Assembly: GCA_964016885.1 (NCBI GenBank)
Contig: OZ024742.1
Location: 306,094,001-306,158,000 of the forward strand
Reading direction: 5' to 3'
DNA from: Eledone cirrhosa
Taxonomy: Eukaryota
DNA: 64,000 nucleotides
Both the position numbers and the translations under genes were made by a program. A model generated the notes under the pieces. It made no database searches and was not told the DNA's origin. It was given only the letters and a program-made list of their open reading frames with translations. Shown here one piece after another: positions 1 to 59,968 of the stretch. Numbering within the stretch: the first letter of the stretch is position 1; the number at the start of each line of letters is the position of its first letter.

Positions 1-543
1 TTTAGACTCTAGCGCTATTTTATCACTTCTTACTATCCAATTTTATATTTTTATATATATATTTTTTTATTATCTTCTAATCTCAATTGATACACCTATT
101 CTATAACGTCTCTTCTCTATTTCCCCAGAATCCTTTTTCGCCTGCTTCCTCTAGCCCATTTTCATACGCAATCCTTAGAATTTGATGTATAGAATTCACT
201 TCCAACGCTTGACCGGCTCAACCCACCCCCTCATTATTCTACAGGCAAGTTCAGGCGCCCCCACCTCCTATCCACTGCCATGATAGACTTAATTGTGTTT
301 ACAAGACATTTTGACCAATCCTCTTGAGTACTATAATCTTCCCATATAAGGAATTACCCCTTGAAAAGCTCGGCTATTTATTTACCACGCTAAAAATTCT
401 AATTTAGTCCAGAAATAGCCGTCGAAACGGCTTGAGCTCTGCAGTCAGGGTCAAACATTTTCCTATTTCCCACTCTACTGCCCTAAGTATTGAGTATTCT
501 GGTGTGTTATGGTCCATCTGGTTCCTTACCACACCTCCTTCGG
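1..543 (+). mobile_element. 3' end/pseudo-LTR of Penelope-like family A (continues off the window start), ending in (TA)n
   Basis: Aligns by eye to 35894-36132 (+), 45730-46095 (+) and the reverse complement of 33079-33400, the 3' end of the RT/EN-coding element at 33-36 kb; contains the HHR at 356-451. Confidence 0.85.
356..451 (+). ncRNA. Type I hammerhead ribozyme, U3-A8 core variant (family A), slightly decayed
   Basis: ACCCC-TTGAAAA-stem II CGGCTATTT/AAATAGCCG-GAAA-CGGC ttGAGCTCt GCAG-TC-AGGGT; one mismatch each in stems I and III relative to the 33090 copy. Confidence 0.75.
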
Positions 544-580
544 TATATATATATATATATATATATATATATATATATAT

Positions 581-960
581 AGTGGTAGAACACTGGAAGG
601 TAATATCCGTAGTGGTAGAGCACTCAGTCCATGGGACGAGTTAGGTAGAAGTGGTTACACAACAGTTAGTTCACCATACCGAGAACAATTGTTTCACCTT
701 AGCGGATCCTAAGCTCGTAATGGACATGGTTATACGGAACAGGAAGGTCAACTGTACGAACGCGTATGCACAGAATTGATCACTTCACACAGGCAATACT
801 AAATTGCGTGCGAGTGGTGTAAGGGAGGTAACTGCGAAAGTCCGAAAGTTTCTGGTTGATAAGAAAATTAGAATGTAGTTGTAATTCAATCCGGAACTTT
901 GAAGTTATGTAAGAGGTGTTTCACCTTACGCACGCAATTCAGTATTGCCTGTGTGAAGTG
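581..960 (-). mobile_element. Unclassified (TA)n-flanked element fragment with internal inverted repeat
   Basis: Abuts (TA)n at 580; 32-bp inverted repeat 781-812/929-960; carries the CTGAGTGCTCT motif at 617-627 (-) shared with the HHR families. Confidence 0.45.
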
Positions 961-1183
961 AATATTTGATTCTTATAGAATTCTAGTAATAATCAGGAAC
1001 TGATTATACAGAGCGGTTGCCTGTCAAGCAGAAATTGAAAATTAGAATTGGTGCTCTGAAATAGCGATATATATATGAATGTATATATAGTGTATTTTGC
1101 AATACACTGTATGTTAATTAAAAAGCACTTCGAAGACCTTACGCTATTGTTTTAGAGTAGTGACAGTCTCACTTACTTTAAAT

Positions 1184-1274
1184 TTTCAGCAAACAGGGGA
1201 GATAAAGCTGACAGAGCTCTGTTTCGTACTTTTTGGTACTTATCAAAGCTAAGTACTTCACCTGTTTGCTGAAA
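1184..1274 (-). ncRNA. Type I hammerhead ribozyme, U3-A8 core, intact copy
   Basis: Minus strand: AGCT-TTGATAA-GTAC caaaaa GTAC-GAAA-CAGAGCTCTG-TC-AGCT, enclosed by the helix TTTCAGCAAACAGG/CCTGTTTGCTGAAA. Confidence 0.88.
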
Positions 1275-1442
1275 CTCATGAATGTTTGATTCTTATAGAA
1301 TTCTAGTAATAATCAGGAACTGATTATACAGAGCGGTTGCCGGTCAAGCAGAAATTGAAAATTAGAATTGGTGCTCTGAAATAGCGATATATATATAAAT
1401 GTATATATAGTGTATTTTGCAATAAGAATCAAACATTCATGA

Positions 1443-56250: not shown

Positions 56251-56825
56251 AATAATAATAATAATAATAATAATAATAATAATAATAATAATAATAATAA
56301 TAATAATAATAATAATAATAATAATAATAATAATAATAATAATAATAATAATAATAATAAGAAGAAGAAGAAGAAGAAGAAGAAGAAGAAGAAGAAGAAC
56401 GAGAAAAAGAACAAGGGAAGAACAATAACAATAATAACAATCCATAATAATATTGTTGGTGTTCCCATAGTTATGGCTCACTTTGATAAAGTTACTATTT
56501 GATTTCTTCTTCTTCTTCTTCTTCTTCTTCTTCTTCTTCTTCTTCTTTGTGGCGTTGGTGGAGCAGTTGTAGTATTAGTATTATTGTTGTAGTCGGTTAT
56601 TATATTTATCATGATTATCATCATTACCAACAGCACTAGCAGCAAAACAACCACCACCATCATCATCATCATCATCATCATCATAATCATCTTCATTATG
56701 ATCTACTTTTTTTAAATAATTTTTTTGGCTTTCTATTTCCCCCATTTTTCTTCATCATCATCATCATCATCATCATCATCATCATCATCATCATCATCAT
56801 CATCATCACCATCATCATCATTATC
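56251..56825. repeat. Trinucleotide microsatellite cluster (AAT)n-(AAG)n, (CTT)n, (CAT)n
   Basis: Direct reading of the sequence. Confidence 0.95.
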
Positions 56826-57920
56826 GTCAGTACCGTCAACATCATCGTTATCCTCATCATCTTACTTTTTTCCATTCTCCTTGTTAATATTTATATTTTG
56901 ATTTTAAGTGTTATTATTACTATTATTATTGTTGTTATTGTTGTTACCGTCATTACTGTTATTGTTTGTTATTACACAAACAACGTGCATAATTGTAATG
57001 TTCCTCTCTGTCCTTTTCCTCTTCATTTTAGAATTGGCAGAGGAAAATGTAGTGGAATTTATATTTTGCAGTGTGTTTTAAACTATGTAAACATCTTTGG
57101 ATTTATCAAACATTTGTAGGAAAGACAAAAGCTAACATGGTTAAATGGGTTTGTTTTTCCCCAATTTACATCTCACTAGCGCGGCCAACCAATGAGAAAA
57201 TCAGAATGACTCTTTTGTTTTTAATAGAGAAAATATAATTATCTGTATGACAGAGTGGGGCGTGATACGCATGATGGTAGACCCAACAGAGAGAACACAG
57301 TGATTATTGTATTAGTAATAATATTGTGTGTAGGTAACAAGAATAGCAGCAACAGCAACAAAAGCAACACTGGCAATAGCATTAAAGACATTCCTTGCTC
57401 CATCAGCAACAACAGCTGCGCCTCCTATGATAGATCCAGCAACTTCAACAAAAACAACATCAACAATCGATAACAACCAGAGTAAGAAAAACTAAGACGA
57501 CAACTATAAGAACATCAATAGTAATAACGTCAAAAGAAGCAGTAAGAAAGGAAACGACATTAACAAAAATATTGGTGGCGACAGAAGCAAGAGAGGAGAC
57601 GAAAAAGCAATGAAGTAGAAGCAATGGCAGTAGATGCAACAAGAGTAGAAAAAGTAGAAAGAAAATCAACAGTCTGGCAAAGTTCTTATCTACACGCAGT
57701 ACTAGACAGAAGGATTGATGCTTACTTAAATAAAAGGAAAAAATGTAAACAGTTCATGTTGAAATATAAGCGTATTGAAATAAGTCTTAAGATATAAACG
57801 GACATTTATTTGACTATTAAGAACTGAAACAACATTCTGAATACCCTCACTTCGTATTGTAGTGTATATTAATGATCCCCTCCAAAATAAATGGCATACT
57901 ACACGCATAGAATATATAAT

Positions 57921-58295
57921 TGTTTCTACTTTTGGCACAAGGCCAGCAAATTACCCAGTGCATTACTGGTACTTTATTTTATCGACTCCGTAAGGATGAA
58001 AGGCAAAGTTAACCTCGGCGGGATTTGAACTCAGTCCGTAAAGGGACGTAACTATGCTGCAAAGCATAACGTCCGACCCTCTACCGATACTGCCAATCCA
58101 CCGCATAGAATATATAATTGTTTCTACTATTGGCACAAGGCCAGCAATTACCCAGTACATTACTGCTACTTTATTTTATCGACCCCGATGAAAGGCAAAG
58201 TTAACCTCGGCGGGATTTGAACTCAGAATGGCAAGGGCCGTAACTCTATGCGTCAAATCATGGTGTCCGACCCTCTACCGATACTGCCAATTCAC
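57921..58295 (-). mobile_element. Two head-to-tail SINE copies separated and flanked by the same 17-mer
   Basis: CGCATAGAATATATAAT at 57904, 58102 and 58296. Confidence 0.9.
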
Positions 58296-59477
58296 CGCAT
58301 AGAATATATAATAATACATAGCTATGATATATAATTACACTGCAGTGTATTATACTACAAAGCTAGGATATATATTTAAAATGTAGTATTTATACTACAC
58401 AGTTTTGATATATTGTTACACTGCAGTGTATTATACGGCACAGCTAAACACTATAGTGTATACTACATAACTATGATATATAATTACAAGGACATATAAT
58501 TACATAGCTACAATATGTATTGCTACAATGTCGTACTTTTTATACATTACACATTTAAAATGTGCCATAAGATTGTACTCTATAGAGTTGGGAAATTACA
58601 TATCTCCATACTCTCTCTCTGCATCTATCCATACATTGTGTACACTCATGATTAGTAGTCTCCCCGGTCTCAGTACCGCAGATTCTCTCTCTCTCTCTCT
58701 CTCTCTCTCTCTCTCTCTCTCTCTCTCTCTCTCTCTCTCTCTCTCTCTATCTCTCTCTCTCTCTCTCTCTCTCTTTCTCTCTCTATTTCTCCCTCTCTGT
58801 ATATATATGTGGGTACCCCCGTTTGAACCCGGGATACATACACACACACACACACACACACACATATATATATATATATATATATATATGTATTGATCGG
58901 GTCATCAGCGACTAAACCGGCAACCCCACCAGGCTTGCTTGGTGAGGAGGGTGATATTTGGACACTCTGTGGGATGAAATACAAAACCCGGCAAAGGGCG
59001 GAGCAACTCAGCAGAGTCAACGGACATCCAAAATGTACTTTTCTTTTTCACCTGGGTGTGAAAGGCCCCCAGTTTTTGTCACAATACATTTCTAAGAAAG
59101 GGAAGCTATGAAAAATTAAAAAAACCTGCAGCTTCGGAAACATCCGATGATGTTGACTAGTTGTCATTTTCGGGTAGTGTTTTCGATGTTCAGGGAGAGG
59201 GATTGGTCGAGTGCACGGCCTTTCCCCACTTAAGAATACTTCAAAGCACAGGCATTGCTTGTTCAGGATATGTTACAGGTGCATGGGGCTGGCGGTAGTG
59301 ACCTAAAAGTGCACCATTTTCTGTAATCTGGCAAGAGATTGCAATAGTCCTAGCAGAGTTTGAAGCCATCATATATATATATATATATATATATATATAT
59401 ATATATATATATATATATATATATATATATATAGAGAGAGAGAGAGAGAGAGAGAGAGAGAGAGAGAGAGAGAGAGA

Positions 59478-59968
59478 GAAATATTAAAACAATAAAATTA
59501 AACAGAAAACTGTTAATTCATAGTAAAACTCATTATTTTACGATCGTTTCTGGGGGGGGGGGGGTAGTTCCCTGCATGTTCATTCAATTATTGATCTATG
59601 TAAAACATATTACAAAATATCATAGTAAGATAAAATATAATTAATTCTGAAGACGGCGGGTAGTGAAGACGTATGTATTTTTTTCTCACTATGATATTTT
59701 GTAATATGTTTTACATAGATCAATAATTGAATGAACATGCAGGAAACTACCCCCAGAAACGATCGTAAAATAATGAGTTTTACTATGAATTAACAGTTTT
59801 GTGTTTGATTTCATTGTTTTAATATTTCTAATTTGACTCTGTATCCAATTGAATTATATCGTTGACATTATTTGTATTTTAAACTTTGCTTCACTTCTTC
59901 TACATACGGATTACATTGAGTTCTTCATACGGTTTAGACCCTACAATTGAGTGGTAGATTTATCTGTG
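59478..59968 (+). mobile_element. Fold-back insertion of HHR family I
   Basis: 59478-59639 inverted relative to about 59674-59828; right arm extends to (TA)n at about 59969. Confidence 0.8.
59640..59774 (+). ncRNA. Type I hammerhead with about 80-nt loop II
   Basis: ATTaATT-CTGAAGA-cGGcGGGTAGT...ACTACCCCCa-GAAA-CGATCG-TA-AAATAAT. Confidence 0.62.

Follow-up and report, generated by a model that had tools for sequence, protein, structure and literature searches.

Motif sites and their host elements

The window analysed in this study is a 64,000-nucleotide stretch of the Eledone cirrhosa genome (NCBI GenBank assembly GCA_964016885.1, contig OZ024742.1, positions 306,094,001 to 306,158,000 of the forward strand), which carries several families of Penelope-like elements (PLEs) of the Hydra type. 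An 11-nt motif, TYGAGYRCTYT, had been pointed out in these elements by the original prediction, and we present evidence that it belongs to a predicted RNA hairpin that is duplicated in the untranslated leader and adjoins the element ends. The features concerned, in which RT stands for reverse transcriptase, ORF for open reading frame, pLTR for pseudo-long terminal repeat and MFE for minimum free energy, are as follows.

1981..7233: head-to-head (inverted) insertion of the Hydra-type Penelope-like family A in (TA)n, its short end (minus arm) at about 1981 and its long end (plus arm) at 7233
3411..5623, minus strand: family A ORF for RT and C-terminal GIY-YIG, split over three frames, with RWR, DET, CxCx5C, CxxC and CxH
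5731..5754, minus strand: family A hairpin 1 in the 5′ leader (ACTC...TT GAGT GCTTT)
5641..5663, minus strand: family A hairpin 2 in the 5′ leader (GCTC...TT GAGC GCTTT)
7041..7105, plus strand: family A hammerhead of type I in the inverted pLTR, with its CTGAAGA core at 7048
Core at 2080, minus strand: second family A hammerhead copy
7153..7176, plus strand: family A hairpin 1, lying in the tail (about 7146-7233) of the inverted arm
33079..36133: inverted insertion of the Hydra-type family B, its short end (minus arm, with the broken ORF) at 33079 and its long end (plus arm) at about 36133
35945..36039, plus strand: family B hammerhead with U3-A8 core and long stem II, predicted from the sequence to cut after 36035
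33091-33185, minus strand: second family B hammerhead copy
36061..36089, plus strand: family B hairpin 1 (ACTC TAC...GTA TT GAGT ACTCT)
357..543, plus strand: family B 3′ end, with U3-A8 hammerhead (357-450), hairpin 1 (472-500) and long end at about 543
24773..24823, plus strand: family C hairpin 1 with long inner stem; mutated-core hammerhead at 24701, long end at about 24857
10582..10632, minus strand: family C hairpin 1, 5′-truncated copy
31331..31341, plus strand: family C motif in a copy truncated within the hairpin
8752..8780, plus strand: hairpin (ACTC TGAGA...TCTTA TC GAGT GCTTT) of no ORF-linked family
36731..36759, plus strand: hairpin of a family related to B
617..641, minus strand: hairpin with a 1-nt bulge in a family linked to a Hydra-type endonuclease; short ends at −6/−8 in 5 of 5 junctions
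8023..8063, minus strand: probable long-loop hairpin 3′ of an intact hammerhead (core at 8190), unmatched by the covariance model and absent from the MFE fold
59916..59926, plus strand: motif-like 11-mer about 45-50 nt ahead of a (TA)n run, with no RCTC partner and, from its sequence, doubtful as a member of the hairpin set

All 13 of the previously listed 11-mers were confirmed in position and strand, and the second motif copy of family A does end 17 nt upstream of the ATG at 5623; the consensus TYGAGYRCTYT fitted seven of the 13 sites strictly, and the other six deviate from it. RCTC lies 9-40 nt upstream of most motif copies in the window and could pair with GAGY across a 2-nt bulge. A search of the window with a covariance model, trained solely on hairpins from metagenome contigs of other organisms, gave 12 matches at E ≤ 3, including 10 of the 13 sites, and missed those at 617, 8023 and 59916. 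The TCGAAGTGCTTT of a 320-bp unit, which had been regarded as a variant of the motif, has no upstream RCTC, differs among copies and was unmatched by the model; judged from these features, it is not the same element as the hairpin. Additional to the listed sites, TTGAGTTCTCT occurs at 39934 (plus strand) and 38335 (minus strand), with a diverged 5′ strand and about 160-200 nt past a Hydra-type endonuclease end.

The motif had been placed downstream of a hammerhead, and this held for six of the 11 sites checked: the core upstream is intact for 7166 and 8023, mutated for 24813 and 617, and of the U3-A8 variant for 490 and 36079, and no hammerhead was found upstream of 8770, 10582, 31331, 36749 and 59916. 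Site 5731 is separated from its hammerhead by the inversion of the element. The U3-A8 hammerheads (TTGANAAG) at 357-450, 33091-33185 and 35945-36039, also present in the 320-bp units at 959-1972, are missed by scans for CTGANGA; this variant has been reported to be active.

The families had been described as unrelated, a claim that could not be retained: every family linkable to an ORF is Hydra-type. The tie to a Hydra-type ORF is clear for the families of sites 7166/5731/5641, 490/36079 and 617 and weak for 36749 and for 24813/10582/31331, and comparison of motif families against ORFs gave no link for 8023, 8770 and 59916. An ORF link of family C via L201 was discounted as a neighbouring insertion. 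For family B, two ideas were rejected: that an antisense ORF is copied, since what looks like a piece of sense ORF at 33168 is the pLTR in reverse, and that a ribozyme is lacking, since a U3-A8 core is present.

Judged by the protein motif signature of PMC8557442, the host elements are Hydra-clade PLEs. RW[KR] was found in 77 of 85 aligned relatives and GxK[FY] in none; the window frames carry RWR, and the N-terminus of family A in the window, which lies outside the 85-row alignment, contains GIKF. DK[TS] was present in 83 of the 85 relatives and DKG in one, with DKT in the unbroken copy L123 and in family B and DET in the family A copy of the window. CxCx5C (82/85), CxxC (85/85) and CxH (84/85) all occur in the window frames, and only one relative in 85 has a cysteine pair inside the GIY-YIG core. 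Both the hammerhead in the pLTR, for which cleavage is predicted, and the insertion into (TA)n are present in these elements. The family A unit of about 3.9 kb (1981-5839), with a 1.4-kb 3′ region, exceeds the length published for the Hydra clade, which is generally <3 kb (PMC8557442). A Pfam search with five proteins returned a single weak GIY-YIG match (E 0.042); the best structural matches of an AlphaFold model of a relative (predicted local distance difference test score, 93) were telomerase RTs, and the nearest named protein relative was a cephalopod protein.

The hairpin, its duplication and its spread

The motif forms part of a predicted bulged RNA hairpin, RCUC-stem/loop-YY-GAGY-RCUNU, as its 3′ arm and the adjoining flank; this hairpin is characterized by an invariant CUC/GAG stem, a pyrimidine-rich 2-nt bulge and an ACU-N-U outside the pairing. 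The pattern RCTC-N6-30-TYGAGYRCTYT gave 108,967 matches in the genome versus 1,907 for the reversed pattern, a count inflated by copy number. As an independent set, 78 Hydra-type loci were taken from metagenome contigs by protein alone (the best 80 of 477). Of these, 70 had flanks that could be used and entered the analysis, and in 34 of the 70 the 5′ start was intact. The sense leaders, 5,230 nt in all, gave 31 matches to the hairpin descriptor, spread over 24 of the 34 loci, compared with 4 in antisense and 0.105 in shuffles, indicating enrichment by strand and position; ORF sequence contained 13 matches in 131,929 nt.

Covariation was assessed in sequences chosen by the 3′ motif only, in which 89 matches yielded 70 with an upstream CTC and 60 that were non-redundant. 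The first inner pair was formed in 56 of these 60 (C-G in 38, U-A in 15) against a permuted mean of 44.5, with none of 5,000 permutations as high, and the second in 43 against 26.5 expected. Only a bulge of 2 nt brought the strands into register (56 paired versus 3, 3, 7 and 27 for other sizes), and a formal covariation count on a 44-row subset agreed for the first inner pair. Copies in this genome mostly combine, within one element, ACTC/GAGT in hairpin 1 with GCTC/GAGC in hairpin 2, and the G-C outer pair (GAGC) was found in 48 of the 60 metagenome hairpins. GAGY-RCTC as a self-complementary dimer site was rejected, since the fourth base of the 3′ flank ACU-N-U varies and GAGC-AC lacks self-complementarity. 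Among the 150 Rfam matches listed out of 212, none reached its cut-off; all were to microRNA families and driven by microsatellites.

The motif was present in 31 of the 34 full-length metagenome leaders, and 24 had two copies, 54-74 nt apart. The two-copy leaders cover 14 lineages under 60% amino-acid identity and spread across the whole of a quick tree (from which L264 and L274 were left out, and which contains neither the named references nor an outgroup). The median protein identity of the 34 relatives was 49%, with silent sites saturated, and in 263 pairs under 60% identity four-fold sites were 0.28 identical and the spacers 0.545, compared with 0.518 when shuffled, so that the flanks are not alignable. 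Because the motif persists while silent sites are saturated and spacers unalignable, it appears to be kept by selection, which together with the positional and strand enrichment supports the shared cis signal that had been proposed; the tests named at the outset as able to refute that proposal did not do so.

Published consensuses extend this distribution. Among six Hydra consensuses read by eye (PMC8557442 File S7), the motif is clear in the coral Hydra-2_Amil and in the sea cucumber Hydra-1_Ajap (two copies) and Hydra-2_Ajap, a variant in the copepod Hydra-1_Crog, a near match in Hydra-1_Obim and doubtful in Hydra-1_Amil. Six motif words gave seven matches in that supplement: four fall in the Hydra file, and three are scattered over the Naiad and Chlamys files, which are much larger; line breaks may conceal further matches in this comparison. 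The predicted duplicated hairpin thus spans Hydra-type PLEs of several animal phyla.

Element ends and inverted insertions

Element ends were mapped with a reference set of seven natural two-hairpin copies, five of them from one family group, which gave 224 matches and 165 (TA)n junctions, with 22 matches running through. The junctions lay at −9 to −4 from hairpin 1 or 2 in 136 of the 165 and within −20 to +3 in 163, and fourteen further references placed 82 of 116 junctions at −13 to −3. The mode was −8 in 18 of 22 junctions of a family chosen by its endonuclease and −6 in 14 of 18 at hairpin 2 of family C, and the long ends of family A map about 9 nt 5′ of hairpin 2. By eye, the end falls 0-12 nt ahead of a hairpin in 10 of the 13 metagenome loci that were informative. 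TA started at −9 to −5 in 52 of 58 hairpins, compared with 15/57, 18/57, 28/58 and 20/60 in other windows of that kind, so that a UA dinucleotide of the predicted RNA is conserved at the junction point 5′ of each hairpin. The ribozyme-to-hairpin spacing is looser: the motif, previously placed 45-150 nt 3′ of the cleavage site, lies about 43-100 nt from the hammerhead cut when measured to hairpin 1, and is tied more tightly to the element ends than to the ribozyme. Since the ends adjoin hairpin 1 or hairpin 2, the known Penelope tail, described in PMC8557442 (Fig. 2 legend) and PMC3846280, is here the segment bounded by the two points, and it contains hairpin 1.

The two kinds of end are combined almost strictly in inverted copies. 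Families A and B together gave 51 head-to-head insertions, of which 49 joined a long with a short end and two were long+long, with no short+short case; two tallies on slightly different loci, in which insertions with identical flanks were merged, both gave 49 and 2 of 51. At loci chosen without the motif, 31 of 32 inverted insertions were long+short (P=7.7e-9 against independent ends). Both near-complete elements of the window obey this rule, and in family A the longer ORF remnant lay on either arm (7 versus 6). At L140:1287-1600, two long-ended copies stand tail-to-tail across a short (TA)n run, the reverse of the usual layout, which is either real or an assembly fold-back.

Another family (window 9385-10401; L172-L200), which we take to be Neptune-like from its endonuclease motif, has two 3′ ends about 58 nt apart. 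Its own ends contained no motif in the 30 loci searched, and the nine matches of the covariance model on 29 of its loci included seven that were inspected, six of them in other inserted families and one weak.

The genome of 3.0 Gb is rich in microsatellites and its Penelope load is very heavy: one hammerhead pattern gave about 95,600 matches versus 8,461 for a reversed control, about 60,000 candidate Hydra-type endonuclease pieces were counted, and family B is among the most abundant families. The 320-bp units at 959-1972 are tandem and inverted, with a hammerhead and without the hairpin, and thus retrozyme-like; short motif-bearing units form satellite-like tandem clusters at G000:C1:14237932-14266631 (L309-L315) and L067. 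The remnants at 13946-15123 and 16800-17470 resemble a DNA-transposon ORF and the 3′ end of a long interspersed element (LINE).

A putative start-site ruler and its alternatives

We consider it probable, on the grounds of end positions and conservation, that the duplicated hairpin is a binding site and ruler for the RT of the element, setting a start 4-9 nt 5′ of the hairpin. The element protein would bind each RNA hairpin through its CUC/GAG stem, pyrimidine-rich bulge and unpaired ACU-N-U, and would thereby bring the UA that lies 4-9 nt upstream into the active site, so that a nicked (TA)n target strand could pair with it there and prime cDNA synthesis internally. A start at hairpin 1 would yield the short end, and one at hairpin 2 would copy hairpin 1 and yield the long, tailed end, so that tailed copies would retain a usable signal. 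A head-to-head insertion would arise if the same RNA served for two starts, one on each cut strand of the target. A tentative extension, to which we give somewhat less than even chances, is a two-site ruler in which a protein dimer sits on both hairpins of one RNA, each subunit primes one strand and the resulting pair of cDNAs is linked head to head. The original prediction had named a promoter, RT or endonuclease recognition and translation as possible roles, of which the data favour RT recognition; it had overlooked the paired 5′ strand RCTC, duplication as the rule, the fixed end distance and the restriction to one clade.

Several results weigh against this reading. No (TA)n junction was obtained for 37 of the 224 matches, junction mapping was noisy for several of the fourteen further reference families, and the junction counts stem from few lineages with many copies; the metagenome loci L255 and L261 end elsewhere, and 3 of the 34 leaders have no motif and 7 a single copy. 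Three of the four outer pairs are invariant in the 44-row subset and therefore give no information about base pairing, the outer pair of the metagenome hairpins is weak (49/60, p 0.04, three A-C) and the RNA-strand bias is slight (G-U 11 versus A-C 4). Folded singly, the sequences gain no stability over shuffles (z −1.81 to +0.74), and at 8023 and 59916 the hairpin is absent from the MFE fold; the hairpin is thus weak, and a protein would be needed to stabilise it. The Neptune-like family also pairs long with short ends, in 11 of the 12 pairs scored, one or more of which entered the count twice, without this hairpin; the pairing is therefore general, and the hairpin would be a Hydra-clade signal, not a general PLE signal. 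PMC11167929 finds starts at sites non-homologous to the cut DNA, unlike the proposed UA pairing, and PMC3846280 argues for antisense templates.

Among the alternatives, it is conceivable but unlikely that the hairpin directs RNA 3′-end formation by cutting or termination 4-9 nt upstream, with the RT starting at RNA ends in a LINE-like manner. RNA processing predicts the same fixed end spacing, and PMC11167929 mentions RNA-seq read ends at start sites; however, independently processed RNAs should yield short+short and long+long pairs, seen in 0 and 2 of 51, and internal initiation on unprocessed RNA was demonstrated for the Poseidon element (PMC11167929).

We give less weight to a DNA-level element, that is, an internal promoter, a transcription-factor site or an endonuclease recognition site in the element DNA. 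TTGAGTG resembles, we presume, an NK-type homeodomain site. In D. virilis, Penelope carries regulatory sequence and an internal promoter in the region of its 34-bp tail (PMC2377424), and that tail is required for endonuclease recognition (cited in PMC11167929). The fixed 2-nt bulge and the pairing across very unequal loops nevertheless suit a fold of one strand better than a site in duplex DNA; GAGC is the reading of most copies elsewhere, and a promoter does not predict ends at −9 to −4.

A translation signal for the uncapped hammerhead-cleaved RNA, or a translational feedback site, appears slightly less probable again. Both hairpins sit between the ribozyme and the ATG, and the GAG of hairpin 2 is 20-36 nt upstream of the ORF start in most leaders, but such a signal leaves the end positions, the UA and the long/short pairing unexplained, and the hairpin spacing to the ribozyme is variable; translation may be a second role of hairpin 2. 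Functionless similarity from recent common descent, with which the restriction of all linkable families to one clade and the copy-number-driven genome counts would agree, is largely refuted by motif persistence beside saturated silent sites and unalignable spacers, across the whole tree and in the published coral, sea cucumber and copepod consensuses.

The preferred reading, an RT-bound ruler, can be compared with known systems. The elements, their ribozymes (PMC4209133, PMC7229834), the tail and internal initiation were known beforehand. Hydra-clade PLEs (Craig et al. 2021, PMC8557442) likewise have a single RT-endonuclease ORF with RWK/R, DKT, CxCx5C, CxxC and CxH, a pLTR hammerhead, (TA)n targets and an optional tail at one end; they differ in that no leader hairpin is described in the available text, and their tails are given as 30-40 bp, compared with 45-90 nt here. 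The Poseidon protein PAc, a predicted dimer, cuts and extends both strands of AT-rich targets, and RT starts internally at two sites bounding the tail, as in the proposed scheme (Frangieh et al. 2024, PMC11167929). It differs in that the available text names no duplicated conserved motif and the starts lie within the ORF, at an AC-rich stem-loop, and do not match the target, whereas in the Hydra-type elements each start is followed on its 3′ side, at a fixed distance, by a copy of the hairpin, in the untranslated leader and with UA at the start. Literature searches, which covered listings and passages of openly accessible papers, returned no account of the duplicated hairpin, of the end spacing or of the near-strict long/short count.

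Small RT-bound RNAs that set where copying starts or stops include the R2 3′ untranslated region structure, the telomerase template-boundary stem and hepadnavirus epsilon. No sequence or structural homology of these to the duplicated hairpin is shown, and the hairpin lies 3′ of the start and is therefore not copied from its own start, unlike these RNAs.

PLEs are the retroelements closest to telomerase, with the tail and inverted pLTR among their hallmarks, and internal start-site choice and tailed, inverted insertions are called unresolved in PMC11167929 and PMC2377424. The duplicated hairpin of 25-50 nt offers a minimal RNA on which binding, start sites and structure can be studied, and it marks where about 100,000 copies in this genome truly end. 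If the proposed role is true, any RNA bearing the hairpin could be mobilised in trans; a one-RNA, two-subunit ruler, if true, would explain the tail, its presence at one end only and the inverted pLTR, and other PLE clades would act alike using different RNA signals. The hairpin thereby bears on template RNA recognition by the sister group of telomerase.

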